A DNA stretch of 64,000 nt, taken from Lachnospiraceae bacterium (GTDB lineage Bacteria; Bacillota; Clostridia; Lachnospirales; Lachnospiraceae). The notes below the pieces were generated by a model. It saw nothing but the letters and a program-made list of their open reading frames with translations, was not told the DNA's origin and did not search any database. The position numbers and the translations under genes were made by a program. Every line of letters begins with the position of its first letter. The stretch's first letter is position 1. Below, one piece after another: positions 1-12,255 of this stretch. The stretch spans positions 1-64,000 of the forward strand of contig JAAWBX010000011.1 in NCBI GenBank assembly GCA_022792885.1, read 5' to 3'.

Positions 1-191
1 AGGGGCAGGACGTTTTATTCGTTCTGCTTTTTGATGTTTTCTGCTTTTTCTTGCCACGAAAATACTCCTTTTAATGGAAAAGACTACAGTGTAAACTGTA
101 GCCTCTGGCAATATCATACCATATCTCATTTTCCGCTTCCACGAGCTTAGTCACTCGCATGTCATATACCTCCTCTTGCGAAATCCCCTTG

Positions 192-626
192 TCAGGATTC
201 CTCAATATGCTGCTTCCCTCTCAATCCCCACAGGATCCCGACGGATCCAAACGCGAGCACGATCACTTCCGTCGCCACAAAAGCTCTCGTTGAGAAATGA
301 AGGATGTTGACGAGAATCGTCGCCGCCACCGCCACGATAAAATACAGGGTTCCCAAAATCGTCATGGCCTGATTCTGCATAATATTCTGCCGGTCGTCCA
401 GCATTCCGAGAATAAACATCCCGAACATGGCGGTAAACGCCACGCCGATAAATACCAGGGACAGCAGGAGCCGGCCGGTAATCTCCTCCGCCAGCAAAAG
501 CGTCGCCGCAACGCCGGCCGCCAGAATAATCACATAGGCGATGATCGTCGTCATAACCTTTCCCGAGACATTCGCATTCAAGACAGATTGACCGGGCCTT
601 TCTTTCTTCATTTTTTCTTTTTTCAT
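192..626 (-). CDS. small integral membrane protein (3-4 predicted TM helices), last gene of the sigma/TIR/SPFH cluster
   Basis: ORF with long hydrophobic stretches (TIIAYVIILAAGVAATLLLA, LLLSLVFIGVAFTAMFGMFILGML, LYFIVAVAATILVNIL); 15-nt gap to upstream SPFH gene. Confidence 0.5.
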   Translation of the reverse strand: MKKEKMKKERPGQSVLNANVSGKVMTTIIAYVIILAAGVAATLLLAEEITGRLLLSLVFIGVAFTAMFGMFILGMLDDRQNIMQNQAMTILGTLYFIVAVAATILVNILHFSTRAFVATEVIVLAFGSVGILWGLRGKQHIEES

Positions 627-641
627 TCCGCTCTCCTTATT

Positions 642-1925
642 CTATAACGGCTGACCGCAGTGCATGCAGAAACGGGCTCCCGAAGGAATCTCTTCCCCGC
701 AGTTCGGGCAGACCGGCGCCAACGGCTGACCGCACCCCATACAAAAACGGGCTCCCGCCGGGACAGACGTCTGACAGTTCGGACATACCCGGCCGGCGGC
801 CGGCGCACTTTCCGCCGCGACGCCCGAAGCCTCCGAAGCCGGCGCCTGTATCGGCGTCGCTCCCGCTCCCGGGGCCGCTCCCGGCTGACCCGGCGTTACG
901 AAAACATTGGCTGTCGGATTCAATCCCGGATTCGGCATCATACCGCCCGCGCCCATGACGCCGCCCACCATACCGCCCACGGCCCCGCCCATGGCCGTAC
1001 CGACGCCCGCCATCATGCCAAGGCCGATACCCATATTACTGAACGTACCGGTGTTTTCGTTGGAAGCAATCTTCTCGGCCACATCAAAAGCCCGCTCATC
1101 CTGATATGTATAGCCTTCCAGACGCCGCTTCTCGGCCTCCGCCTGGGCCATAAGGATCCGCTTCTGAGCCTCCGTCTGCTGCCTTATAATCGCCGTCTGC
1201 TGATCGGTCTGCGCCGTAAAAACATCCGTATAACGGCTCGCCATTGCCTCTTTCAGACGCCGGTAAGTCGGATCATCCTCCGGCCTCACCACCGTGTTGA
1301 TCATAAACCGGGTCAGAGTCACGCCGTACTCCGAAAAATCCGTATCCAGTTTCGCTTTGATCACATCCGACAGCACATCCAACTGGCTGTCGATCTCAAA
1401 AATATTCAACTGCTGCTCCTTGATGCTGCGGGCAAGATAAGATTTGACCCGATTCATCAGGATCCCTCTGAAATACGAAACCATATGTTCCGGCGTCAGC
1501 GTCGTTTCAGCCCCCACCAGGCGGACCAGGAAACGCGCCGAATCCGCAATCTGGATTCCCATATCCCCGCTGGCGCCGATCTCCATCGGGAAATTATAAT
1601 TCGGTTCAATGAACTGAACCTTACTGTCCGTCCCCCATTTCAGGGACATCTTCTCCACTTTGTTGACAAAATAAACCTCACAGTGAAATGTTGACACACC
1701 GCCGGTAGGAAGATTCATCAATTTCCGCAAAAGCGGGATGTTCTCGGTCTTTAACACATAACGCCCGGCCCCGAACACATCCGCAATCTGCCCGTTCTTG
1801 AAAAACACCGCTTCCTGGGATTCATGCACGATCAGCGTGGACGACGTATTAAAATCCTCCGCCGGATGTTTCCACACCAGAATATTATTCCCGCCCTCAT
1901 ACTTGATCACTTCTAAGATTGCCAT
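642..1925 (-). CDS. SPFH/Band-7 domain protein with Gly/Met-rich linker and C-terminal double zinc ribbon (four CxxC pairs)
   Basis: N-terminal region matches SPFH 'virion core protein-like' family (KYEGGNNILVWKHP...FHCEVYFVNK); C-terminus CPNCQ...CMGCGQ...CPNCGE...CMHCGQ zinc-ribbon repeats. Confidence 0.7.
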   Translation of the reverse strand: MAILEVIKYEGGNNILVWKHPAEDFNTSSTLIVHESQEAVFFKNGQIADVFGAGRYVLKTENIPLLRKLMNLPTGGVSTFHCEVYFVNKVEKMSLKWGTDSKVQFIEPNYNFPMEIGASGDMGIQIADSARFLVRLVGAETTLTPEHMVSYFRGILMNRVKSYLARSIKEQQLNIFEIDSQLDVLSDVIKAKLDTDFSEYGVTLTRFMINTVVRPEDDPTYRRLKEAMASRYTDVFTAQTDQQTAIIRQQTEAQKRILMAQAEAEKRRLEGYTYQDERAFDVAEKIASNENTGTFSNMGIGLGMMAGVGTAMGGAVGGMVGGVMGAGGMMPNPGLNPTANVFVTPGQPGAAPGAGATPIQAPASEASGVAAESAPAAGRVCPNCQTSVPAGARFCMGCGQPLAPVCPNCGEEIPSGARFCMHCGQPL

Positions 1926-2000
1926 ATTTTCTCCTCTCTCGCGCCCGGACTCACCGATCCGACTTTGCTACCGCAGAATCTGTGTCTGAATGCCGTCGCC

Positions 2001-4046
2001 TCAGTCCTCCCTCGAACCGTATCCGGGAAGATTCACCAGATGTTCGCTGCCGATCTCTTTCTCCCAGCGATCTCTCACTTCTTCCCGTATCTCTTCTTCC
2101 AAAGGTTTAAGCACCTGAGTCTCGTATCTTTTCATTGAATTGTACAGCCCGCTCCAGCGGATCGAAACGATTGTCCTGTACAAACCGAACAGAACGGTCA
2201 GGGCTCCGACAGTCGGGAATATTACCCGGACAGCGAAAGGCAGATCATACGAATCAAAAAATGTATCAAAGGCCCATCCCATACCGAAACTTAAAACCAG
2301 CGTGAGGATAATCGTAGCTTTGAAACCTATAAACGAACCCAGAAACACCTTGGAACCCGCTATACAGAAGGCGGCGGACCAGACCAAAAGAAGCATGGCG
2401 CCTTCTTCCCGGATATCCGAATAAATCCCAATTCCGCTGAGCAGCAAAAGCACGCTGAAAAACAGAGCAATAATGCCGACTCCCTCGTCATAGGTATGTT
2501 TCACGACCCTTATCTTCTTTTTTAATATTTTTTCGTATTTTGCAGCTTTATCCGGATGCTTTTCCTGCAGCGTACGGGTAATGTAGGTCCGAGCCGGATC
2601 GATCTGCGCATGATATTCCTGAATCTTCCGGTTCAGCTCCTCCTGTTGTCTGGCCTTTTCCTCCTGCCTGGCGATCCCGTCCCTGCACGTTTTGCGAAGG
2701 CGATGAAACGCCGCTTCATCGCCGATCCGAAAACCGCCCTGCGAAGTCCGCTCCGTCACTTCATCCAATACCTGCTCCGCTTTACGGTAATTCTCCTTTT
2801 TAATCAGTTCTTCGGCCCTTACAAGCTCTCTGGATTGGTCGCAACAGTTGTCAAAAAGAAGCAGTTGCGCTTTGCGCTCCTCATTTCCGTACTGCATCGC
2901 CCGCTTAAAATATCGGTCGTCCACCCAACTCCACTGTTCTTTCGAGGGGCAGGACGGCAGCGCGGTGATCTCCCGCTTCGCCAGGAGCCCGAAATAATAT
3001 GCCTCTCCGTTCTCCGGATCCCGGTTTAAAACTTCCTCCAAAAGCCGGTTCGCTTCCTCAAAATCCTGATCCTCCACGGCCTGTTTGGCGCGGATCAAAA
3101 GTTTTCCGGTCGTCACGCCGGCGGCCCCCGCCGCGGCCAGCGTCTCCACCGTGCGGCCCGTCAATTTGCTCACGCCCCGGACCAGATCCTGCATCGCCCC
3201 CACGCGGCTCATGTCCTGCCCCTGCACCGTTGGGATCTCCGGCGGAAAATCATACGGGCTCATATCCACGAACACCGGCACGATGTGTTTGCTCCGGTCT
3301 TTGTCCATCATACTTAAATACCGGCTCCACTCGTTCTTCACCCATCGCGCTTCCAGTTGTTCCGGCTTATCCGCCGTCAGCAAGAGAACCTTCGCCGAAT
3401 GCAGCGCCGCAAAAATATAAGGCTCATATTCCTCGCCCGACATCCCCTCCAGCGTAATCCGGGAGAAAAACACCTTAAACCCTTTTTCCGTCAGGTTTTC
3501 ATAAATCTCCTGCGCCAAAACGCTCCCCTTCGTCCGCTGCCCGTTCTCCTCCTGAGCTTTAAAACAGATAAACACGTCGTAAGGGGCTTCCCTGCGGCTG
3601 ATCTCCAGATACCGGCTCTGAATTCGATCGATCTTCCTCGCCTCTTTCCGGTAAAGCTCCTTCGTATATTCATCGGAGGCTTCCAGCGCCGCCAGATAAT
3701 CCGGATCATCCAGAACCCGCTCGTAGCTCATACGGCTGACCGTCGGTTTATAGTCCCCGCTTCTGGGATCCTTTACATATTCCACACCGTAACGGCACAG
3801 CGTCAGACACCAATGCGCCTCCGCGTCGCTCTCGTCGTCGGCGATAATATGCTCGTAGGCCGAATACGCCCGGTCAAAATCCCCGATCTGCCGGAAATGA
3901 TTCCCCCGGTTGTACATATCCGCACGCTTATCGTCGTCGATCTTCGGCAGCGTCACCTCGCTGCCGCAACTGTCGCAGATCCCGTGGCTCTCGCCGGTAA
4001 TCTCGATATTCCCGCCGCAGAGTTTACATTTTAATGCTGTCATCAT
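2001..4046 (-). CDS. Zn-ribbon / TPR-like / TIR-like domain protein with C-terminal 4-TM membrane anchor (paralog B)
   Basis: N-term CKLCGG...CDSCGS zinc ribbon; TIR-like core YDVFICFKAQEE...GFKVFFSRITLEGMSGEEYEPYIFAALHSAKVLLLTADKPEQLEARWVKNEWSRYL; C-terminal hydrophobic helices; ~95% identical to upstream paralog over first ~300 aa. Confidence 0.65.
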   Translation of the reverse strand: MMTALKCKLCGGNIEITGESHGICDSCGSEVTLPKIDDDKRADMYNRGNHFRQIGDFDRAYSAYEHIIADDESDAEAHWCLTLCRYGVEYVKDPRSGDYKPTVSRMSYERVLDDPDYLAALEASDEYTKELYRKEARKIDRIQSRYLEISRREAPYDVFICFKAQEENGQRTKGSVLAQEIYENLTEKGFKVFFSRITLEGMSGEEYEPYIFAALHSAKVLLLTADKPEQLEARWVKNEWSRYLSMMDKDRSKHIVPVFVDMSPYDFPPEIPTVQGQDMSRVGAMQDLVRGVSKLTGRTVETLAAAGAAGVTTGKLLIRAKQAVEDQDFEEANRLLEEVLNRDPENGEAYYFGLLAKREITALPSCPSKEQWSWVDDRYFKRAMQYGNEERKAQLLLFDNCCDQSRELVRAEELIKKENYRKAEQVLDEVTERTSQGGFRIGDEAAFHRLRKTCRDGIARQEEKARQQEELNRKIQEYHAQIDPARTYITRTLQEKHPDKAAKYEKILKKKIRVVKHTYDEGVGIIALFFSVLLLLSGIGIYSDIREEGAMLLLVWSAAFCIAGSKVFLGSFIGFKATIILTLVLSFGMGWAFDTFFDSYDLPFAVRVIFPTVGALTVLFGLYRTIVSIRWSGLYNSMKRYETQVLKPLEEEIREEVRDRWEKEIGSEHLVNLPGYGSRED

Positions 4047-4071
4047 CTTTCCCCCTCTTATTCTTGTGCCT

Positions 4072-6090
4072 CTACTGCAAATTCCCCGTCCGGTATCCGG
4101 GAAGATTCACCAGGTTATCCGCTCCGATCTTATCCGTCCATTCCCGGGTCACTTCGCTCCGGATCTCTTCCTCCAGCGGTATCAGGATCTTCTCGTCGTA
4201 ATCGTCTACCGCATCGCGCATAGACGCGCATTTCATCGTAATGCGGGTCTGATTCAAACTGACGAAGAACTGCCAGACCGCGATCAGCGGAAACGCGAGC
4301 CGCAGCCACTGAAACGTCAAAAACATTGTAATCACGAAACTGATACCGAACGTAATCGCGGATACCATCCCCCAGACGATAAAACCGGGAAATTCCGGAT
4401 TCGGCGCTTCCTCCGTGGACGTATAAGAACCGGGCAGCATACAGGTAATATTCCAGGCGAGCAGAAGCGGAACGCTCATCTCCCTCCAGAGGAGCGCGCC
4501 GATCCCGATCGCGGCCAGCGTGCTGACCAAAGGCCCGAAACCCTTCCCTTTTTTATAAACCTTTGTCTCGTCCACATGCATCGCATTTACCAGGCTCTCA
4601 TATTTCTCCGCCACGTCCCGATGCCGTTTTTGTATCGTCCGGGTCACGTAAGTATCGGGCGGATCGATCTGCGCGTGATAAGCCGCCAGATTCCGCCGCT
4701 CCTCTTTCTGTCTGGCCAGGATCTCCTCACACTGCGCCCGCAGGCGGACAATCTTCTCGCCGTTGGCGAGTACATATGCATCCTCCTTCGCCTTTCGTTC
4801 CATCTCGACCAGACGTTCCCGGGCCTCCCGATATTGCTTTTTCGCAATCAGCTCTTCCGCCGACGCCAACATGGGGAGCTCATAAGCCAAATGTTCAAAC
4901 TCATGCAGCTCCCTCTTCCGTTCTTCGCTTCCATACTGCAGCGCGCGTTTGAAATAACGGTCCTTCGTCCATTCGTCATAGGAACCGGAGCCCTTCGGAT
5001 CCGGCAGGCTCCTCACCTCGTTCTTGGCGAGAAGTCCGTAATAGTAAGCCTCCCCGTTCTCGGGTTCCCGGTTCAATGCTTCCTCCGTCAGCCGGAACGC
5101 TTCCTCAAACACGCCGTCCTCCAGCGCCTGCCGTACCCGGGTCAGGATTCCGGCCACCGTCACGCCCGCGCTTCCCGTCACGACCTGTGCTTCCGCCACG
5201 CGCCCCGTCAGTTTGCCCACTCCCCGGATCAGATCCTGCATCGCCCCCACGCGGCTCATGTCCTGACCCTGCACCGTCGGGATCTCCGCCGGAAAATCAT
5301 ACGGGCTCATATCCACAAACACCGGCACGATGTGTTTGCTCCGATCCTTATCCATCATGCTCAGATAGCGGCTCCACTCATTCTTCACCCACCTGGCCTG
5401 CAGATGCTCCGGTTTATCCGCCGTTAAAAGCAGGACCTTCGCCGAATGCAGCGCCGCAAAAATATAGGGTTCATACTCCTCGCCCGACATCCCTTCCAGC
5501 GTGATCCGGGAGAAAAACACCTTAAACCCTTTCTCTGTCAGATTTTCATAGATCTCCTGCGCCAAAACGCTCCCCTTCGTCCGCTGGCCGTTCTCCTCCT
5601 GAGCCTTAAAACAGATAAATACGTCGTAGGGGGCTTCCCTGCGGCTGATCTCCAGATACCGGCTCTGAATGCGGTCGATCTTCCCCGCCTCTTTCCGGTA
5701 AAGTTCCTTCGTATACTCGTCGGAAGCCGCCAGAGCCGCCAGATAATCCGGATCGTCCAGAACCTTTTCATAGTTCATACGGCTGACCGTAGGTTTATAC
5801 TCCCCGCTTCTGGGATCCTTTACATATTCCACGCCGTAGCGGCACAGCGTCAGGCACCAGTGCGCCTCCGCATCGCTCTCGTCGTCGGCGATAATATGCT
5901 CGTAGGCCGAATACGCCCGGTCAAAATCCCCGATCTGCCGGAAGTGATTCCCTCGATTATACATATCCGCACGCTTATCGTCGTCGATCTTCGGCAGCGT
6001 CACCTCGCTGCCGCAACTATCGCAAATCCCGTGGCTCTCGCCGGTGATCTCGATATTCCCTCCGCAAAGCTTACATTTTAATGCCGTCAA
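4072..6090 (-). CDS. Zn-ribbon / TPR-like / TIR-like domain protein with C-terminal TM anchor (paralog A)
   Basis: Same architecture and near-identical N-terminal half as 2001-4046; diverged coiled-coil/TM C-terminal half; both end in LVNLPGY motif. Confidence 0.65.
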   Translation of the reverse strand: MTALKCKLCGGNIEITGESHGICDSCGSEVTLPKIDDDKRADMYNRGNHFRQIGDFDRAYSAYEHIIADDESDAEAHWCLTLCRYGVEYVKDPRSGEYKPTVSRMNYEKVLDDPDYLAALAASDEYTKELYRKEAGKIDRIQSRYLEISRREAPYDVFICFKAQEENGQRTKGSVLAQEIYENLTEKGFKVFFSRITLEGMSGEEYEPYIFAALHSAKVLLLTADKPEHLQARWVKNEWSRYLSMMDKDRSKHIVPVFVDMSPYDFPAEIPTVQGQDMSRVGAMQDLIRGVGKLTGRVAEAQVVTGSAGVTVAGILTRVRQALEDGVFEEAFRLTEEALNREPENGEAYYYGLLAKNEVRSLPDPKGSGSYDEWTKDRYFKRALQYGSEERKRELHEFEHLAYELPMLASAEELIAKKQYREARERLVEMERKAKEDAYVLANGEKIVRLRAQCEEILARQKEERRNLAAYHAQIDPPDTYVTRTIQKRHRDVAEKYESLVNAMHVDETKVYKKGKGFGPLVSTLAAIGIGALLWREMSVPLLLAWNITCMLPGSYTSTEEAPNPEFPGFIVWGMVSAITFGISFVITMFLTFQWLRLAFPLIAVWQFFVSLNQTRITMKCASMRDAVDDYDEKILIPLEEEIRSEVTREWTDKIGADNLVNLPGYRTGNLQ

Positions 6091-6106
6091 TTTTCCCTCT
6101 CCCCCT

Positions 6107-8032
6107 TTATGGTTTTATCTCGACCTCCGCCCGAATCTCCTCTTCCAGAAGATATACCGGCGAATGAAAATAAAGCGTCACCTCCGATTGCGGTCTCTCA
6201 TCCTTACTGGTCAAGATAACCTGATTCTCAGGCCGGATACCGATTCCCGCTCTTTTCTGACCGTCCTCTGCCTCCCCGGCAAACTCCGCCGCCGCATTAA
6301 AAGAACTGAGAAGCGGCTCCCCTTCCTCTTTATCTCCCTGTCGGATTTCACATGTCAACGTATACTGCCAATAAAGTTCTCTCTCGCCCCAGGTTTCCCC
6401 TTCCCGCTCCCACCGGATCTCCCGTTCCTTCTTCTCGGCTTTCACATGAAGAATTCGCACCGTCTCGCCTCCGGGAAAGGAAAGTTCCGCCTCGGTCTCC
6501 CGGTCTTCCCCGTCCGTCGTCGGAAGCGGCAGGGTAATCTTCCCCGTCTCGGCCTCCCCCTCCAGACAAAGGCAGGGAAGCACCAGCGTATACGTCCCGG
6601 CCTCCGCTCCCTCTATGTACAGCTCTTTTCTGGCCAGCTTCGCGGTGGAGTCCGAAACCGCCTGAGCCGGATATTCCCTTCCTGCTTTATCCCTCAGATA
6701 AGCCGGACGGTAGTCCCCATTCCCGGTCCCTCTCGAAGACTGCGTCAAAAACGGCGAGACGGGATAACCTTCCCGCTCGGACAGCGAATACAAAGAAATC
6801 AGCGCGCCCTCCCCGCTTTTGCGGCCGGGTTGAATCAGGAGACTCCCTCCCGAATATTCCACCGTCTGTCCCAGAGCGGACAAATCTTCTTCAAATCGCA
6901 ATTTAGACAACGTCAGATCAAAACAGGGAACCTCCCCTTCCATACGGTACGATTCCCCCGTCTCCCTTCCGTTCTCATCATACAGGGCAATCTCCGGAAT
7001 CTCCCCGTTCTCCCGGACCGGATCCAGGCGTATCGAAAGCGACAGTTCCTCCTCGCTCTCATCCGGCGTCCAGAAAAACCAGCAGGATACCCGTTCGCCG
7101 CCTTCCAAAATCCGGCAGGACTTCCCCAGATCCGGAATCACCGATATCCCCTCTCCTTTACAGGCTCCGATATAATAATCCGCAATCGCCGGAAAACGAA
7201 ACCTCTCCCCCTCACCCGGCGGGAACGAAGCAAAAAACGCCAGATACAGCTCCCCGCTCTGATAAACCGCATCCGTTACGATAAAAGTTATGCCGTCCTT
7301 CTCGTAAAAAGGCTTCTCTCCATGCAAGGAATAGACAGGTTCCGATTCCTCCCAGTTAAATCCCGTTCTCTCATGAAATTGAAACCTGTGAAACAACATC
7401 GCCGCGCAGCCGGCCAGCACCGCAAGCAAAAGCCCCAGAAGCAGGATTTTCAGAAGCTTTTTTATACTCCGCTGGCCCCGTTTCTTCACCGTCTCATAAG
7501 GAAGTTTCATCTGAGCCGCGATCTCCTTAAAACTCAAGCCGCCGTAATATTTCATCCTCAGGATCGCTCCGTCCAAAGGTTCCAGGCGGCTTAGAATCTC
7601 CTCCAGATCTCCCTCCGCCCAAATCTCTTTTGGCGTGTTCTTCTCCTGAGCCATCTGCTCGCGAAGCTTCTCTTCCGCCCTCTCTCTGCGCTCGTTTTTC
7701 CGACACAGATCAAGCGCCTGATGATCCGCGATCGCACAGAGATATTGTTTTAACGTACCCTTTTTCGGATCGAACTTCTGGGGATTTAAAACAAACGCGG
7801 CAAAACTGTCATTCACACATTCCTTGACATCCTCCGGATCCGACAGCCGCCTGGCGCAGATTCGCCAGACCAAACCACTGTAAGCCTCCCACAGAGCAAC
7901 GGTTCCCTTCTCCCGGTCGTTTTCCAAAAGAGCTATCAGTTCTTCCTCCGTGTACCTACCCGTTTCCATCCATTCTCCTATGCTCCTTCTTGTATTAACG
8001 CAATCCTCCTCATATTTTGATTCGTTTTTCAA
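6107..8032 (-). CDS. ECF-type sigma-70 family sigma factor fused to a TM helix and ~420-aa extracytoplasmic domain (sigma/anti-sigma-like fusion)
   Basis: Region 2-like (ALWEAYSGLVWRICARRLSDPEDVKECVNDSFAAF) and region 4-like HTH (LDGAILRMKYYGGLSFKEIAAQMKLPYETVKKRGQRSIKKLL) followed by ILLLGLLLAVLAGCAAMLF TM and a long acidic C-terminal domain. Confidence 0.7.
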   Translation of the reverse strand: MKNESKYEEDCVNTRRSIGEWMETGRYTEEELIALLENDREKGTVALWEAYSGLVWRICARRLSDPEDVKECVNDSFAAFVLNPQKFDPKKGTLKQYLCAIADHQALDLCRKNERRERAEEKLREQMAQEKNTPKEIWAEGDLEEILSRLEPLDGAILRMKYYGGLSFKEIAAQMKLPYETVKKRGQRSIKKLLKILLLGLLLAVLAGCAAMLFHRFQFHERTGFNWEESEPVYSLHGEKPFYEKDGITFIVTDAVYQSGELYLAFFASFPPGEGERFRFPAIADYYIGACKGEGISVIPDLGKSCRILEGGERVSCWFFWTPDESEEELSLSIRLDPVRENGEIPEIALYDENGRETGESYRMEGEVPCFDLTLSKLRFEEDLSALGQTVEYSGGSLLIQPGRKSGEGALISLYSLSEREGYPVSPFLTQSSRGTGNGDYRPAYLRDKAGREYPAQAVSDSTAKLARKELYIEGAEAGTYTLVLPCLCLEGEAETGKITLPLPTTDGEDRETEAELSFPGGETVRILHVKAEKKEREIRWEREGETWGERELYWQYTLTCEIRQGDKEEGEPLLSSFNAAAEFAGEAEDGQKRAGIGIRPENQVILTSKDERPQSEVTLYFHSPVYLLEEEIRAEVEIKP

Positions 8033-8181
8033 AGGGAAAAAGGGACATTTTTTTTAAATTCGCATTTTTTCGACACATTTCTGTTCTTTTCGCGCACTGT
8101 TTATATTATAGCACATCATCCGTGCCTGATTCAATATATTTTTTTACTTAGTAAAACAAACCAAAAACCGATAAAATCCCT

Positions 8182-8210
8182 TGCCCTCCCCTCTTTTCTG
8201 GTGTATAGTA
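8182..8210 (+). promoter_or_regulatory. candidate sigma-A promoter (TTGCCC-17-TATAGT) for the methyltransferase gene at 8242
   Basis: -35/-10-like hexamers with 17-nt spacer in AT-rich divergent intergenic region 8033-8241. Confidence 0.35.
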
Positions 8211-8241
8211 AATCCAAACGATTTATGCGGGGAATTTATTC

Positions 8242-9105
8242 ATGTGGATTGCGGATCAATGGAAAGATTATAAGATCTTGGATTGTTCGGACGGGGAAAA
8301 ACTGGAAATCTGGAACGGTTACCGGCTGATTCGGCCGGATCCTCAGGTTATCTGGCGTACGCCGAGGGGACACGAATGGAAAAAACCGAACGCTCATTAC
8401 CACCGGAGTTCCAAAGGCGGCGGCGAATGGGAATTTTTTGATCTTCCGGAACAATGGGACATCTCTTACCGGGAGCTGACCTTCCATTTAAAGCCGTTCC
8501 GCTTCAAACATACCGGATTATTCCCTGAACAGGCGGTAAACTGGGACTGGTTCTCTTCTATTATTAAGCAGGCCAAAAAACCGGTAAAAGTTCTTAACCT
8601 CTTCGCTTACACCGGCGGAGCCACTCTGGCCGCAGCCCGGGCCGGCGCTTCGGTCACGCACGTAGACGCTTCCAAAGGCATGGTCGCCTGGGCCAAAGAA
8701 AACGCCGGCGCTTCGGGCCTTGCCGAAGCGCCGATCCGCTGGCTGGTAGACGATTGTATGAAATTTGTGGAACGGGAACGGCGCCGGGGCAACACCTACG
8801 ACGCAATCATCATGGATCCGCCCTCCTACGGCCGGGGCCCGGGCGGAGAAGTGTGGAAGATTGAAAACACCCTCTACGACCTGGTCTGCGCCTGCGCAAA
8901 GATATTGAGTCCGGACGCTTTATTCTTCCTGATCAACTCCTATACGACCGGACTGGCCCCGGGCGTGATGGCCTATCTGCTGAAAAGTCTAATCGTTCCC
9001 GACTTTGGCGGACAGGTCACCTCGGATGAGATCGGTCTTCCGGTAGGGGAAAAAGAACGAATCCTTCCCTGCGGCGCATCCGGACGCTGGTTCCGAACCG
9101 CATAA
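8242..9105 (+). CDS. class I SAM-dependent methyltransferase (RlmI/YccW-like rRNA methyltransferase family)
   Basis: SAM-binding motifs LNLFAYTGGATLAAA, DAIIMDPPSYG. Confidence 0.65.
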   Translation: MWIADQWKDYKILDCSDGEKLEIWNGYRLIRPDPQVIWRTPRGHEWKKPNAHYHRSSKGGGEWEFFDLPEQWDISYRELTFHLKPFRFKHTGLFPEQAVNWDWFSSIIKQAKKPVKVLNLFAYTGGATLAAARAGASVTHVDASKGMVAWAKENAGASGLAEAPIRWLVDDCMKFVERERRRGNTYDAIIMDPPSYGRGPGGEVWKIENTLYDLVCACAKILSPDALFFLINSYTTGLAPGVMAYLLKSLIVPDFGGQVTSDEIGLPVGEKERILPCGASGRWFRTA

Positions 9106-10050: not shown

Positions 10051-10857
10051 TCACTTATGTCGGCCTTTTTCCATTATCTTCACCAATATATCTCGCACGC
10101 CAACTTCATATTTGTTAAAGTCGTCAATGTTTGTATCCTTCAGCCACAACTGACCTTCACCAACATTTCCCCTATGTTGCCCGGAAGAATAATAGCGATT
10201 GTTCTTCACCTCGTCACTGGAAAGTACCCAATAACGTATTACATCACGCCAGACGGCGATCCAAACAAAAACATCGCAGCACGCAGGCTTTATCTGCTGA
10301 AAGTTCATATCAAAACCATATTCCGAATCACTTGATAATGCTTTATCAATTTTTCCATCTACCGCTCTCCTTACATAGGTTATTTGATCATCGGTCAGAC
10401 CATAAATAGAAAATACATCGTTTTCTATGACTTCTTGCTTTGAATTATCGCCATTCAAAACCTCGTCAACCAACATCGTTAATCGGCTGTTTTCTACTTC
10501 GGATATTTCCAGAAACGGCAATTCAATCAGGTTACCTTTTAATACCTTCACTTCTCCAAACAGTTTCATATACATAAACTGAAACAATGACGAATTCAAA
10601 AACGCCATTACCGCTTTGATACTCATGGAGGGAATTGCCGGAATTAAAATATTTGCACTATTCAAAAAGAGACTCGAACTATCGTCATAGGCAAAGACAA
10701 GTTTGTTTGATATAAACTTATATGCCAATTTTTCGGGCGCACGGTAGATTTCTTCTTTTGCCACTTGCTGTAAATTACTTCTGTCATACAGAATATAATT
10801 TCTTGCCTGCTTTAAAACATATGGTTGAATTTCTTTTCCGGTATATATCTTCTCCAT
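10051..10857 (-). CDS. probable target-recognition (TRD) portion of the N6A DNA methyltransferase, in a different frame from the catalytic part
   Basis: Overlaps upstream MTase ORF by 46 nt in another frame; reading frame open up to the A7 tract at 10883-10889; low-GC island. Confidence 0.45.
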   Translation of the reverse strand: MEKIYTGKEIQPYVLKQARNYILYDRSNLQQVAKEEIYRAPEKLAYKFISNKLVFAYDDSSSLFLNSANILIPAIPSMSIKAVMAFLNSSLFQFMYMKLFGEVKVLKGNLIELPFLEISEVENSRLTMLVDEVLNGDNSKQEVIENDVFSIYGLTDDQITYVRRAVDGKIDKALSSDSEYGFDMNFQQIKPACCDVFVWIAVWRDVIRYWVLSSDEVKNNRYYSSGQHRGNVGEGQLWLKDTNIDDFNKYEVGVRDILVKIMEKGRHK

Positions 10858-11798
10858 CCCTGCAAAGCATTTTGAAGACAGCTTTTTTTATTGTCTCCTG
10901 TAACGATACCTAATGCCCAAACACTATTTTGAAGCGAATAAGAACCTCGATCTTTGACAGCGCGAATGATAGACATATCATCGTCGGACAGCAGATTAAA
11001 TATAAGATTTTCCGTTTCATATACAGTCCTTATATCAACCGTTCTTTTTTTGCCACTCGTATACACGATGAATTTTTCCCTGTCAGCACCCAAACCACAT
11101 GCCATATCAACATACTTTGTCGTTACACCTGAAAACATATCATCATATATCGTAATACTGACAAGTCCAACGATATCAAGAATGAATTTTCGTATATCTT
11201 TATGTATTTTTACGTTTAATATCGCCTCCGGAAAAAGAAACTTAATCATCCCGTCATCCTTTAATTGTTCATATGCCTTAACAAAAAAATACGAAAACGT
11301 TTCCTTTGACAATATCACATCGATGGAGCTACATGTGTCATCCATCGCTCCCCATGGGGGATTCGTGGCAATATAATCAAACTTCCTTTTAAAAACAGGG
11401 TGCTGTTGTATAATTGAATATCCCATTAAAAAATCAAAACAATATACTTGCGGTTTAAAATCAAAATCCTTATATTTGAGTAACAGATTGATTTTTGAAA
11501 TCAATACCGCAACCTTATCATTATCGACGCCAAAAATTTGATTGGGATTGTTTGCTGCAACGCTCAACAGAAAAGCTCCACTTCCGCAACACGGATCAAA
11601 AAATAACTTTCCATCCGAAAAATCAAAATCTTTTATCATATTGCAGACTATTTTTTGCGGCGTGTAGTATGAGCCAATTATATTTTTCTTCCCCTCTTGT
11701 AAAAACGACTGATAAATCAATCCTAAAATATCAAATTCATCACCGGGTAAAACGGCTGTTACCAAAGTATCCAAAATATCAATTATCCGCATATTCAC
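10812..11798 (-). CDS. gamma-class N6-adenine DNA methyltransferase catalytic domain (TaqI/Eco57I-like), apparently frameshifted from its C-terminal domain
   Basis: Motif X YYTPQKIV, motif I FDPCCGSGAFL, motif IV TNPPWG in X-I-IV order. Confidence 0.75.
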   Translation of the reverse strand: MNMRIIDILDTLVTAVLPGDEFDILGLIYQSFLQEGKKNIIGSYYTPQKIVCNMIKDFDFSDGKLFFDPCCGSGAFLLSVAANNPNQIFGVDNDKVAVLISKINLLLKYKDFDFKPQVYCFDFLMGYSIIQQHPVFKRKFDYIATNPPWGAMDDTCSSIDVILSKETFSYFFVKAYEQLKDDGMIKFLFPEAILNVKIHKDIRKFILDIVGLVSITIYDDMFSGVTTKYVDMACGLGADREKFIVYTSGKKRTVDIRTVYETENLIFNLLSDDDMSIIRAVKDRGSYSLQNSVWALGIVTGDNKKSCLQNALQGWRRYIPEKKFNHMF

Positions 11799-12255
11799 TC
11801 AAAACGGCGGCAACATGTCTTTTTTCGTATATGCCTGCTTTTTTCAAAAGACCAATTCCCAAGGAAAAAATAGCAGACATAATATCAAGACTGTTTTTGT
11901 CAATATAATCCAGTATGGTCTGTACGAATGTAATACTTTCCTTATTTTCAATATACTCCAAGGGAAGAACTCGTTTGACTGACTTTCTTTTATTGGCGCG
12001 TGTCATTAAACGTTCGGTTGATTTTATGTTGAGTTTTTCCCAATTTCTCGCAGTAGCATCTGAAATACCATTTTGCATCACATCCGAACTAACGGGGACT
12101 TGCTCTTCCACAACCTCTACGATATCGTCAAGCCCACAATCAAAAGCGACTGCAATTTTCGCTAATGTTTCCATGGCAACGGGTTCGTTCTTTCCCAATT
12201 TGGCAAGTACGTTCGTACTGATCCCCGCCGCTCTGAGCATCTCTGTTTTTGTCAT
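11779..12255 (-). CDS. XRE-family HTH protein (controller-like) upstream of the methyltransferase
   Basis: N-terminal Cro/C1-type HTH (MLRAAGISTNVLAKLGKNEPVAMETLAKIAVAFDCGLDDI); 20-nt overlap with MTase start. Confidence 0.55.
   Translation of the reverse strand: MTKTEMLRAAGISTNVLAKLGKNEPVAMETLAKIAVAFDCGLDDIVEVVEEQVPVSSDVMQNGISDATARNWEKLNIKSTERLMTRANKRKSVKRVLPLEYIENKESITFVQTILDYIDKNSLDIMSAIFSLGIGLLKKAGIYEKRHVAAVLSEYADN

Follow-up and report, generated by a model that had tools for sequence, protein, structure and literature searches.

The five minus-strand genes between positions 192 and 8,032 of the window, by which we mean the whole 64,000-nucleotide stretch of Lachnospiraceae DNA that was analysed, include a conserved unit that comprises three gene families and not five genes. 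These families encode zinc ribbon-TPR-TIR (ZnR-TPR-TIR) proteins, SPFH proteins and membrane proteins with four transmembrane (TM) helices (4TM proteins). We tentatively read the window, with somewhat less than even confidence, as carrying a variant of a membrane conflict module that is widespread, as an accessory element, among Clostridia of the gut and rumen, and wherein the TIR domain serves as an NADase effector. There is no description of the TIR-SPFH-4TM combination in the searchable literature, and the module is absent from PADLOC 2.0, where only weak matches to ThsB were obtained (E 3e-3). The family is also absent from a 2025 systematic survey of TIR proteins based on defence islands. 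Thus, the remark in the initial annotation that this gene combination was not recognized as a described system still stands. The absence from the survey could mean that the family is not enriched beside known defence genes. Matches to PADLOC families make up approximately 10% of ORFs both within 2.5 kb of the module and at 5-10 kb from it.

All five ORFs are found as first described, with intergenic gaps of 15, 75, 25 and 16 nucleotides. In order of increasing coordinates, they encode a small membrane protein (192-626, 144 amino acids), the SPFH protein (642-1925, 427 amino acids), TIR paralog B (2001-4046, 681 amino acids), TIR paralog A (4072-6090, 672 amino acids) and an ECF sigma factor (6107-8032, 641 amino acids as first called). 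The region at 8033-8241 had been proposed as an AT-rich promoter region. Its GC content is 0.42 and it includes, upstream of the sigma gene, a promoter-like site at 8105-8134 recognized by a consensus scan and by its sequence. Read on the minus strand from 8134 to 8105, this site consists of TTGAAT, an 18-nucleotide spacer and TG-n-TATAAT (an extended -10 element). The sites returned by the scan of this region are no more numerous than chance predicts, and therefore the site is a candidate only. No promoter or terminator is detectable between the sigma and TIR genes. Together with the gap of 16 nucleotides and the single upstream promoter-like site, this makes it likely that the sigma and TIR genes are co-transcribed. 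The sigma-A-type candidate site is likely the start of a transcript spanning all five genes, and no terminator was found downstream of the last gene, which encodes the 144 amino acid protein.

A gene for a large serine recombinase begins approximately 135 nucleotides downstream of the last cassette gene (1-57, minus strand, with a GTG start codon at 57-55) and is cut off by the edge of the window. On contig L001, this gene encodes Resolvase, Recombinase and Zn_ribbon_recom domains. The adjoining recombinase hints that the cassette lies at the border of, or within, a mobile element. The cassette is also located some 4 kb from tuf, fusA and rpoBC.

Overall identity between the two TIR paralogs is 64%, rising to about 95% across their first 300 amino acids. 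Within the first 300 codons there are 62 synonymous differences versus 13 non-synonymous differences, which argues for purifying selection on this portion. Paralog A is arranged as an N-terminal CxxC...CxxC zinc ribbon, TPR, the TIR domain, a further TPR/coiled coil portion and a multi-pass C-terminal membrane anchor. CxxC pairs and TPR matches in the paralogs agree with the zinc ribbon/TPR-like module initially placed at their N termini, and in paralog B the ribbon is formed by C7, C10, C24 and C27 (3966-4028, minus strand). The C-terminal anchor of four TM helices that was also proposed is present in paralog B (about residues 523-626; 2169-2480, minus strand), where hydropathy and an AlphaFold model place helices at 523-543, 549-569, 575-596 and 604 to about 626. 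However, only two TM segments are evident in the 672 amino acid paralog A at a strict hydropathy threshold. The C terminus of paralog B that follows these helices is a conserved cytoplasmic helix with a PLEEEIR motif. The window TIR proteins are multi-pass and have neither an outer domain nor a DGR.

The TIR domains are located at about residues 154-284 of paralog A (5239-5631, minus strand, from Pfam and alignment) and 155-285 of paralog B (3192-3584, minus strand, from Pfam, AlphaFold and Foldseek). They match Pfam TIR_2 with 36.8 and 36.3 bits, respectively, where the gathering score is 28. The AlphaFold model of paralog B (mc43dc511ccc2, mean pLDDT 87.5) is matched by Foldseek to the plant L7 TIR and to SPARTA TIR-APAZ, each with a probability of 1.0. 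Thus, what had been called a TIR-like core has a TIR fold. The motifs YDVFICFK and ARWVKNEW are both present, and the latter aligns with SKWCLMEL of flax L6, which we take to be the motif that holds the plant catalytic glutamate. This alignment puts E239 of paralog B (codon 3330-3332, minus strand) at the catalytic position that the initial annotation had wished to see located in a structure. The corresponding putative catalytic codon of paralog A is at 5377-5379 (minus strand), within WVKNEWSR. Of 126 unique relatives, 124 retain E239 and all have the four cysteines of the zinc ribbon. The WxxNEW helix and E208/P209 in the BB-loop region are also near-invariant. Judged from sequence, the TIR domains are apparently intact and likely cleave NAD via E239.

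The SPFH protein is a cytosolic protein of the YdjI/SamI-like Band_7_1 type. It carries a Band_7_1 domain (E 1e-39) at residues 24-217 (1275-1856, minus strand) and two zinc ribbons (DZR, E 2e-12; DZR/Zn_ribbon in Pfam) at residues 378-427 (645-794, minus strand), and these matches bear out its earlier description as a Band-7/SPFH protein with four CxxC motifs. A low-complexity stretch rich in Gly, Met and Ala separates the two portions, and hydropathy reveals no TM segment. The 144 amino acid protein is hydrophobic, as expected for the small membrane protein first suggested. It exhibits five overlapping hydrophobic segments at a strict hydropathy threshold, which we read as four TM helices. 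Its gene is always found directly after the SPFH gene, with close homologues in 11 loci. By profile comparison it appears to be a short form of a partner family (C2) of about 233 amino acids that has four TM helices plus a helical tail (hhalign probability 93.7, E 2e-7), and its homologue at locus L093 matches the C2 HMM directly. In the long form the cytoplasmic helical tail is conserved and includes an RYSDP motif. This tail is lacking in the window protein.

There is good agreement with the initial annotation on the architecture of the ECF sigma factor, which was described as fused to its own TM/extracytoplasmic domain. Pfam and NCBIfam matches to Sigma70_r2 and Sigma70_r4_2 place sigma regions 2 and 4 at about residues 47-197 of the 641 amino acid protein, followed by one TM helix at about 196-215 and an all-beta extracytoplasmic domain of roughly 420 amino acids. 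The AlphaFold model (pLDDT 79.7) is matched by Foldseek to SigK, SigE and SigW, and its C-terminal part to 3fbq. The true start codon is probably either the GTG at 7999, located behind a GAGGAGG site, or the ATG at 7969, which yields the 620 amino acid protein of the public annotation. The view that this sigma factor is dedicated to the system is not supported by its distribution. An ECF sigma homologue is absent from all of the approximately 170 related loci examined, and its own homologues (38-43% identity) reside in unrelated neighbourhoods, with TIR and SPFH genes absent from the two contexts L098 and L099. We read the sigma gene as a lineage-specific neighbour that probably shares a transcript here and is outside the conserved system.

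Conservation of the neighbourhood thus extends to the TIR, SPFH and 4TM genes and not to the sigma gene. The trio recurs in gut and rumen Clostridia with one to five ZnR-TPR-TIR proteins per module. A same-strand SPFH gene is found at 55 of 79 genome loci (median distance 731 nucleotides), and at 25 of the 29 genome loci with full flanks, meaning at least 4 kb on both sides. The 4TM partner follows the SPFH gene at 49 genome loci and at 74 of 80 metagenome loci. Gene order is permuted among relatives, with the SPFH-4TM pair before or after the TIR genes. The genes flanking the trio vary from locus to locus, and many loci are located among housekeeping genes. When the SPFH gene is used as the starting point, 63 of 80 loci carry the SPFH-4TM pair with no detected TIR-module gene, although some of these contigs are short. 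This indicates that the pair has a function of its own which, by analogy with B. subtilis, could be membrane homeostasis. Its usual partner is a TIR-less ZnR-TPR protein, often near recombinases, whose head is homologous to that of the TIR proteins (hhalign probability 98.5, E 2e-15). The SPFH-4TM pair is an independent platform that is more often found with these TIR-less proteins. A small resolvase gene is located upstream of SPFH at 20 of 80 metagenome loci, and one TIR-less module is plasmid-borne, on pNP21 of Butyrivibrio, where it is flanked by hsdS, a recombinase and a toxin-antitoxin pair (YoeB/RelB).

The multi-pass proteins of the window represent one variant within a receptor-like family that is far larger. 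There are 3,835 clusters at 50% identity, wherein the module always occupies residues 1-296 and the C termini differ widely in length. Most relatives are single-pass proteins with the TIR domain inside and a variable domain outside. In agreement with this topology, K/R residues number 397 before the TM helix versus 130 after it, and are more frequent before it in 60 of 61 proteins. The outer domains are DUF6273/CLec-like (lectin-like), RCC1 or LRR_5-type. In receptor-binding proteins of phages, DUF6273 has been described as a CLec-like domain targeted by DGRs (PMC10743442). At five loci (L021, L040, L062, L074 and L084), DGR cassettes comprising bAvd, a template repeat and RT target the outer DUF6273 domain, with TR/VR mismatches that are adenine-specific. 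Tandem arrays contain up to five paralogs, and a variable gene slot within the cluster is occupied by genes for standalone TIR, DUF4365, DUF2971, HEPN or CAP12/Pycsar-type TIR proteins. The paralog arrays, C-terminal variability, DGRs and variable slot hint at conflict-type evolution. Neither this wider family nor the pairing of SPFH-4TM with TIR-less proteins was noticed in the initial annotation.

In our preferred model, the physical docking of the proteins, their trigger, the cleavage of NAD+ and the role in defence are inferred. Perhaps the 4TM protein tethers an SPFH oligomer to the membrane, by analogy with the recruitment of YdjI by YdjG and YdjH, such that the assembly would act as a sub-membrane platform. 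The ZnR-TPR heads might dock the TIR proteins on this platform and keep the TIR domains dispersed or inactive until a perturbation clusters them. In relatives, ligand binding to the outer domain could provide the trigger. As there is no ectodomain in the window variant, its trigger is less constrained than any other part of the model. In this multi-pass form the bilayer or platform might be disturbed, for example when a phage adsorbs or injects, or when the envelope is damaged in another way. Clustered TIR domains would then cleave NAD+ through E239, so that the cell would run out of NAD+ and stop growing (abortive infection), or a nucleotide signal might be made.

One unlikely, though far from negligible, alternative is that the genes form an envelope-stress or membrane-homeostasis module with no role in immunity. 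In Clostridia the SPFH-4TM pair would correspond to SamGHI/YdjGHI of B. subtilis, with the ZnR-TPR proteins, whether or not they carry TIR, acting as the sensors in its membrane. Under membrane stress the TIR domain would alter the level of NAD+ or produce a second messenger derived from ADPR, and physiology would be adjusted in this way. The membrane-tethered ECF sigma factor would supply stress-responsive transcription in this genome. The SPFH protein indeed has the YdjI architecture (Band_7_1, low-complexity stretch, C-terminal zinc ribbon and no TM segment), and the ECF gene 16 nucleotides upstream recalls the control of the B. subtilis operon by sigma-W, an ECF factor. The pair is also far commoner than its TIR association, housekeeping genes flank many loci, and the share of PADLOC families is alike near to and far from the module. 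However, no PspA/ESCRT-III is present in the Pfam annotations of the fetched contexts and none recurs among the clustered neighbours, the sigma gene is missing at every other locus, and the candidate promoter is sigma-A-like and not ECF-like. Moreover, paralog arrays, hypermutation of ectodomains by DGRs, slot genes for HEPN, DUF4365, DUF2971 and CAP12-TIR proteins, and plasmid or recombinase contexts are atypical of a housekeeping stress system.

We consider it rather improbable that the module carries out two-step signalling as in Thoeris, wherein membrane TIR sensors make cyclic or modified ADPR and an SPFH-4TM effector damages or remodels the membrane. TM effectors are frequent in bacterial TIR systems, there are 29 putative Thoeris types, the proteins show weak similarity to ThsB and ThcB4, and the RYSDP-motif tail of the long 4TM form could bind a ligand. 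Yet that tail is wholly missing from the window protein, no known signal-binding domain (SLOG, Macro, SAVED, STING or others) was found in the SPFH and 4TM proteins, and the NCBIfam Thoeris models give about 22 bits where their cut-off is 220. Furthermore, the SPFH-4TM pair mostly occurs with TIR-less partners, so it cannot depend on a TIR-made signal. It is quite improbable that the five genes fail to form a single functional unit, such that an unrelated sigma gene is merely positioned head-to-tail with a mobile TIR-SPFH-4TM cassette brought by the serine recombinase. The likely co-transcription described above speaks against this separation, despite the lack of conservation of the sigma gene with the module, the recombinase directly downstream and the permuted gene order in relatives. 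As to the other four genes, this idea is compatible with the best explanation. The least credible proposal, in our estimation, is that the TIR domain is a non-catalytic scaffold that, like TIR in the TLR adaptors of animals, serves only for homotypic interaction, and that it builds membrane complexes through which other cells, the host or substrates are recognized in the gut. It would suit the receptor-like topology of relatives, with their lectin-like, RCC1 and LRR_5-type outer domains, and their great abundance in gut and rumen commensals. However, the window variant carries no outer domain at all, and near-absolute conservation of the glutamate, WxxNEW and E208/P209 is hard to explain without catalysis.

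Viewed as an accessory membrane conflict module, the trio can be compared with several known systems. Zorya (ZorAB) and Kiwa (KwaA) are membrane-embedded phage sensors that convey envelope perturbation to a cytoplasmic effector. The sensing concept is shared by analogy alone, as there is no sequence or domain relationship to the module. Animal Toll-like receptors are likewise a functional analogy only. The wider family resembles them in being single-pass with a variable ligand-binding domain outside and TIR inside, but the orientation is inverted (TIR is N-terminal), the outer domains are unrelated and the TIR domain is likely enzymatic, whereas the window proteins are multi-pass with no outer domain. 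With Thoeris and other anti-phage TIR systems, including CBASS, Pycsar, SPARTA and Avs with their TIR NADase effectors, the module shares a conserved glutamate at the catalytic position, multiple TIR genes per locus and, in its relatives, an association with other conflict-type domains. Unlike Thoeris with its ThsB sensors, it has no ThsA-type or other recognized signal-binding effector. Its TIR domain is part of a longer protein that also has a ZnR-TPR head and a membrane anchor, and neither PADLOC 2.0 nor the 29 putative Thoeris types of the 2025 survey include its SPFH and 4TM partners.

CLec-STAND/TIR 'antigen sensor' systems of multicellular bacteria (PMC10907252) are also diversified by a DGR, just as a DGR rewrites the C-terminal CLec-like domain of a TIR protein at the five loci listed above. 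Those sensors, from cyanobacteria and purple sulfur bacteria, are centred on NTPases of the STAND or MoxR kind, whereas the module has no NTPase, is partnered by SPFH and, in its relatives, has an extracellular variable domain joined to TIR by one TM helix.

In the PspA-YdjGHI (SamGHI) membrane stress complex of B. subtilis, the membrane proteins YdjG, which has N-terminal zinc ribbons, and YdjH recruit YdjI, an SPFH protein that is soluble and has a zinc finger at its C terminus (PMC8581546; PMC11237479). In both systems the SPFH protein is cytosolic, is of the Band_7_1 type, contains a low-complexity stretch and carries a zinc ribbon at its C terminus, and it is encoded with two membrane proteins of which one starts with a zinc ribbon. 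Both also have an ECF link, through sigma-W control in B. subtilis and through the adjacent ECF gene in the window. The partners are likened by architecture. The zinc-ribbon membrane partner has TPR and TIR here but an NTF2-like domain there, and the second partner is a 4TM protein here but a TPM-domain protein there. In contrast to PspA-YdjGHI, the window module has no PspA gene, and it is distinguished by an accessory or mobile distribution and hypervariable paralogs.

There are five consecutive open reading frames (ORFs) in the cassette, and all lie on the minus strand with exactly the coordinates reported in the initial annotation. They encode an ECF sigma factor fused to a transmembrane (TM) helix and an outer domain (641 amino acids, 6107-8032), two paralogous TIR proteins termed A (672 amino acids, 4072-6090) and B (681 amino acids, 2001-4046) that both carry TPRs and match Pfam TIR_2 above the gathering score, an SPFH protein with zinc ribbons (427 amino acids, 642-1925; Pfam Band_7_1, 1e-39, and double zinc ribbon), and a small membrane protein (144 amino acids, 192-626) with no Pfam match. 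From the sigma gene to the small membrane gene, the intergenic gaps are 16, 25, 75 and 15 nucleotides. The AT-rich region previously proposed to hold the promoter indeed includes a sigma-A-type promoter-like site (TTGAAT-18-TG-n-TATAAT, minus strand, 8134-8105), and there is no convincing terminator candidate 3' of the last cassette gene. An invertible promoter for phase variation was considered and is not supported, as there are no inverted repeats within 7800-8500, although many related loci have recombinases.

About 135 nucleotides past the last cassette gene begins a large serine recombinase gene (minus strand, 1-57) that runs off the window and continues at 2029-3222 of L001, a contig that shares this gene; its product has Resolvase, Recombinase and Zn_ribbon_recom domains. 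A 29-codon ORF (MRVTKLVEAENEIWYDIARGYSLHCSLFH; minus strand, 71-160) with a good AGGAGG site occupies the interval that separates the recombinase gene from the small membrane gene. This ORF is also found on L001, and it may be a chance occurrence. The cassette has a chromosomal setting, in which tuf, fusA, rpsG and rpoC are located 4-20 kb away, and the public record identical to the 681 amino acid protein comes from a Lachnospiraceae MAG. An Rfam search of the window returned no RNA family. Just downstream of tuf is a low-GC islet (10051-12255; GC 0.33-0.41, versus about 0.55 elsewhere) that carries two overlapping ORFs resembling a split N6-adenine DNA methyltransferase, with weak similarity to MAD2, Alw26I and PglX, and that also encodes an HTH_26 protein. 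This islet is probably what remains, after decay, of a restriction-modification or defence locus gained by horizontal transfer.

The sigma protein matches TIGR02937 with 84 bits, and the Pfam Sigma70_r2 and r4_2 matches represent regions 2 and 4 only. Its structural model shows an ECF fold, for which Foldseek recovers SigK, SigE and SigW, followed by an all-beta outer domain, which agrees with the earlier proposal that the sigma factor is fused to its own TM and extracytoplasmic domain. However, the suggestion that this sigma factor is dedicated to the system did not hold. Apart from the window's own copy, there is no ECF sigma gene in the 79 genome loci and 80 metagenome loci that carry relatives of the module. 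The protein belongs to a family of approximately 610-650 amino acid sigma-TM-beta-domain fusions whose other members adjoin genes for citrate lyase, HPr, DsbD and thioredoxin. We therefore reject the sigma factor as a conserved partner of the TIR module and regard its position in the window as a local accident of gene order, even though it is likely co-transcribed with the cassette in this genome. At its listed TTG start (8032), the sigma gene lacks a ribosome-binding site, whereas the sequence GAGGAGG sits five nucleotides upstream of a GTG at 7999. In the public annotation, translation begins at an ATG at 7969 (620 amino acids). The C-terminal sequence LLEEEIRAEVE of the sigma protein resembles PLEEEIRSEV in the TIR-protein tail, and this was considered as a possible recombination scar. 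The motif is kept in sigma homologues at unrelated loci, and the DNA match between the two tails spans just 22 nucleotides, so this explanation was set aside.

The central region of the two paralogs, initially described as TIR-like, proves to be a genuine TIR domain. TIR_2 (PF13676) is matched with scores of 36.3 and 36.8 bits, above its gathering score of 28, and an AlphaFold model of paralog B based on 35 full-length homologues (mean pLDDT 87.5) shows a flavodoxin-like TIR fold. In Foldseek searches, the central domain matches the plant L7 TIR (7vu8) and the SPARTA TIR-APAZ protein (8qlo_A), both with probability 1.0 and the latter with an rmsd of 3.0 over 148 columns, while the remainder of the model matches TPR proteins. 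The catalytic glutamate that had been sought in this core has a counterpart at the matching position. When aligned with the flax L6 TIR, the sequence ARWVKNEW falls onto SKWCLMEL, and E239 in WVKNEW lies opposite WCLMEL in the alpha-C helix (WxxxE). The L6 glutamate in this segment is presumably the catalytic residue of plant TIRs. This alignment thus places E239 of paralog B, and E238 of the other paralog, at the plant catalytic position. A glutamate at this position is kept in 124 of 126 non-identical relatives, and all four N-terminal zinc-ribbon cysteines are kept in every one of the 126. Thus, the window proteins belong to the TIR superfamily by profile, fold and the position of the catalytic residue. 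The sole two members that lack the glutamate have Q or Y at this position. Each is the second copy of an array without an SPFH neighbour (L008, 12059-14011; L015, 6844-8898), and they may be degenerating or regulatory paralogs.

The window paralogs share 64% identity overall, a value that rises to about 95% in the first 300 residues. Their DNA is approximately 91% identical through the first 900 nucleotides and becomes unalignable soon afterwards, which indicates that a conserved head is joined to a fast-diverging or exchanged tail. This mosaic points to a possible exchange of C-terminal cassettes or homogenisation of the heads. Recent gene conversion can be only part of the answer, since the first 300 codons carry 62 synonymous and 13 non-synonymous differences. 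The near-identical heads would fit purifying selection as well as an exchange or cassette swap that took place longer ago.

The head, which comprises the zinc ribbon, TPR and TIR regions (300 amino acids), is widespread. There are 3,835 clusters at 50% identity (E <= 1e-30), in which the head always occupies residues 1-296 and total protein length varies from 480 to 1,750 amino acids. In a collection with one genome per species there are more than 600 matches, almost all from gut and rumen Clostridia, and cultured carriers of the family include Ruminococcus flavefaciens MC2020 and Anaerotignum sp. MSJ-24. A locus may have a single TIR gene or an array of two to five. A same-strand Band_7_1 SPFH homologue is found in 55 of the 79 genome loci at a median distance of 731 nucleotides, and in 25 of the 29 genome loci with 4 kb or more of sequence on each side. 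Directly 3' of the SPFH gene, in 49 genome loci, is a gene for a protein of about 233 amino acids with four TM helices and a helical tail (the 4TM protein). The 144 amino acid protein of the window is a short form of this partner, judged by an hhalign probability of 93.7 and a close homologue that matches the family HMM directly. Because the flanking genes vary from locus to locus, we consider the TIR-SPFH-4TM trio to be the conserved unit. The expectation of a conserved gene neighbourhood is therefore borne out for the trio, but not for the ECF sigma gene.

The slot between the 4TM and TIR genes is often variable and can hold standalone TIR, DUF4365, DUF2971, HEPN or CAP12/Pycsar-type TIR genes. 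A 265 amino acid Macro-domain protein (PF01661, 1.7e-38) is encoded after the cassette in two loci (L005, 16021-16818; L007, 9433-10230). This gene is suggestive since Macro domains bind ADP-ribose, but it is not kept elsewhere, and we discarded it as a Thoeris type II-like effector because it is confined to one lineage. In five loci, a small ribbon-helix-helix (CopG/Arc-type) gene is located just upstream of the TIR or SPFH gene (L019, 631-1011; L032, 8545-8772; L053, 1888-2112; L080, 7415-7858; and L092). Its product could be a local repressor that takes the place of the sigma factor seen in the window. A 537 amino acid ORF located upstream in L094 was examined as a possible sigma-domain homologue and is instead another TIR paralog.

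When metagenome contigs were scanned with an SPFH alignment, 80 loci (L100-L179) were recovered, of which 74 carry the 4TM partner after the SPFH gene and only 17 carry a TIR-module gene. The slot after SPFH-4TM in 53 of these loci is occupied by a gene for a soluble, TIR-less protein of about 417 amino acids (e.g. L106, 9851-11059; L112, 3254-4519; L147, 2806-4098), with a zinc ribbon and TPR N-terminus, a helical, coiled-coil body and a conserved GIFKGKEKK-LQ-QID motif in its tail. The heads of the TIR proteins and of this family are homologous (hhalign probability 98.5, E 2e-15). A TIR-less trio of the same kind is present on the 20.5 kb Butyrivibrio fibrisolvens plasmid pNP21 (NZ_CP146965.1, 4925-10666), where it is flanked by hsdS (type I restriction-modification S subunit), a recombinase gene and a YoeB/RelB toxin-antitoxin pair. 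Since most loci found from the SPFH side have TIR-less partners, the SPFH-4TM pair appears to be an independent and often mobile platform that serves varied zinc ribbon-TPR clients. TIR proteins are nearly always accompanied by SPFH-4TM, but the converse is not true.

Large serine recombinase, integrase and relaxase-like genes are frequent near the metagenome loci recovered with the SPFH alignment. The gene immediately 5' of the SPFH gene, on the same strand, is a resolvase/invertase gene of about 200 codons in 20 of the 80 metagenome loci (e.g. L106, 7195-7797), and a gene for a tyrosine recombinase of about 280 amino acids in seven genome loci (L034, 6029-6871; L040, 6095-6952; L042, L050, L060, L066 and L074). 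These upstream genes could serve phase variation or mobility. Large serine recombinases also occur within 10 kb in L016, L036, L055 and L081. A phage or plasmid origin of the TIR genes themselves is not supported: tblastn searches of 50,697 phage and 72,556 plasmid records gave no match, and relatives are found on just 3 of 2.9 million viral contigs, two of which also carry SPFH.

A single strong TM helix near residues 500-600 is typical of most relatives of the window TIR proteins, and it precedes 170-670 amino acids of variable sequence (median 309) in which Pfam recognises DUF6273, RCC1, WD40_RLD or LRR_5. Lysine and arginine residues are much more common in the 15 residues before the helix than in the 15 after it (397 versus 130, with an excess before the helix in 60 of 61 proteins). 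This positive-inside bias indicates that single-pass relatives hold the TIR domain inside the cell and the variable domain outside. The window proteins instead have four TM helices, as first described for their C-terminal anchor, and a conserved cytoplasmic C-terminal helix in place of the single TM helix and ectodomain. They thus represent a minority, ectodomain-less subfamily.

At five independent loci, a bAvd-like gene and a template repeat (TR) come directly after a single-pass TIR gene. Reverse transcriptase is also encoded in three of these cassettes (L040, 12424-14477; L062, 12446-14535; L084, 6520-8572), and the other two appear to have lost it (L021, 12425-13249; L074, 12161-13008). 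The variable repeat (VR) forms the extreme 3' end of the TIR gene, within the DUF6273 ectodomain. Each TR/VR pair has 17-26 mismatches, of which 16-24 fall on template adenines, and this pattern is the signature of a diversity-generating retroelement (DGR). In the receptor-binding proteins of phages, DUF6273 is a target of DGRs that resembles C-type lectins (PMC10743442). Among the genes scanned in the window, there is no reverse transcriptase or Avd gene.

One possible mechanism can be sketched from these features. By analogy with the YdjGHI system, the 4TM protein would tether an SPFH oligomer beneath the membrane, and the zinc ribbon-TPR heads would dock TIR proteins onto this platform. In single-pass relatives, ligand binding outside the cell might cluster the TIR domains, and in the multi-pass form of the window a disturbance of the bilayer or of the platform might have the same effect. 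TIR enzymes characteristically require oligomerisation for activity, and therefore such clustering would be expected to switch on NAD+ cleavage.

We give somewhat less than an even chance to the reading that the module is an anti-phage or anti-mobile element conflict system. What speaks for this role, and not for a housekeeping one, is that the paralogs form arrays, that DGRs target some members, that the slot holds defence-type genes, that recombinases and a plasmid appear among the contexts and that the residue at the catalytic position is strongly conserved. Counted against it are the housekeeping flanks at many loci, the absence of the family from a defence-island-based survey of TIR proteins, and the similar frequency of known defence-family (PADLOC) matches within 2.5 kb of the module and 5-10 kb away. 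An envelope-stress signalling module is rather unlikely; the same arrays, DGR targeting and slot genes weigh against it and the housekeeping flanks for it. If the module were such a system, it would link NAD+ signalling to membrane homoeostasis in Firmicutes. A non-catalytic scaffold is very improbable, with the glutamate so widely kept among relatives. It is also quite improbable that the five genes do not work together as a unit, a reading that would be compatible with a conflict module; the sigma gene, placed there only locally, speaks for it, and the close spacing of the cassette against it.

A Thoeris-like system of signal plus effector seems improbable. Among the window proteins, the PADLOC ThsB match reaches only E 3e-3 and the NCBIfam ThcB4 model scores 22 bits against a cut-off of 220, and the SPFH and 4TM partners lack a signal-binding domain (SIR2-SLOG, Macro-TM or others). 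Since the scores are far below the cut-offs and a signal-binding effector is missing, the window TIR proteins are not members of Thoeris.

A bolder and rather less likely reading places the window genes in an unrecognised class of bacterial transmembrane TIR receptors, in which surface-exposed sensors, diversifiable by DGRs in some lineages, would be coupled through the membrane to an enzymatic TIR domain and organised on a flotillin-like SPFH platform. Gut Clostridia might use them to sense phages or other threats from outside, ahead of entry or while it takes place, with the multi-pass variant of the window sensing membrane perturbation itself. If true, these proteins would follow the logic of Toll-like receptors in a prokaryotic setting. 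To our knowledge, the bacterial TIR systems described so far sense phage components in the cytoplasm, and a large family with a predicted, apparently active TIR domain on the inner membrane face would extend this picture. The proposed role would bring surface- or membrane-level sensing into bacterial immunity, give SPFH proteins a concrete client, and account for a class of DGR targets in the gut microbiomes of humans and animals. The window copy is one modest member, and the interest lies in the family that it reveals.

There is no system-level match to any of the five proteins in PADLOC, PHROGs or NCBIfam, and in the literature library searched just two papers use both 'TIR domain' and 'SPFH', neither of which connects the two. 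The initial impression that this gene combination is not a described system is thus upheld. The ESCRT-III protein PspA is absent from the five window genes and from the Pfam annotations of the fetched relative contexts, and its family is not recurrent among clustered neighbours of the module. Among the SPFH proteins that have been studied, YdjI/SamI of Bacillus subtilis comes closest in architecture. It is a soluble SPFH protein with a low-complexity stretch and a C-terminal zinc finger that is expressed from a sigma-W-dependent promoter and is recruited to membrane foci by YdjH and by YdjG, which has N-terminal zinc ribbons and a TM segment (PMC8581546; PMC11237479; bioRxiv 10.64898/2026.02.06.704340). 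The window SPFH protein, with its Band_7_1 domain, double zinc ribbon and lack of a TM segment, has the same type of architecture. Compared by architecture alone, both systems also pair an N-terminal zinc ribbon membrane protein with a second membrane protein, but the window partners differ in their domains from those of YdjGHI/SamGHI. Similarly, DGR-diversified sensors that contain TIR domains are known from multicellular bacteria (PMC10907252). Those sensors are organised around STAND or MoxR NTPases, whereas the present family has a TM-linked ectodomain and an SPFH partner. TIR-based conflict systems are known, and what is new here is the unrecognised partner set and the membrane topology.
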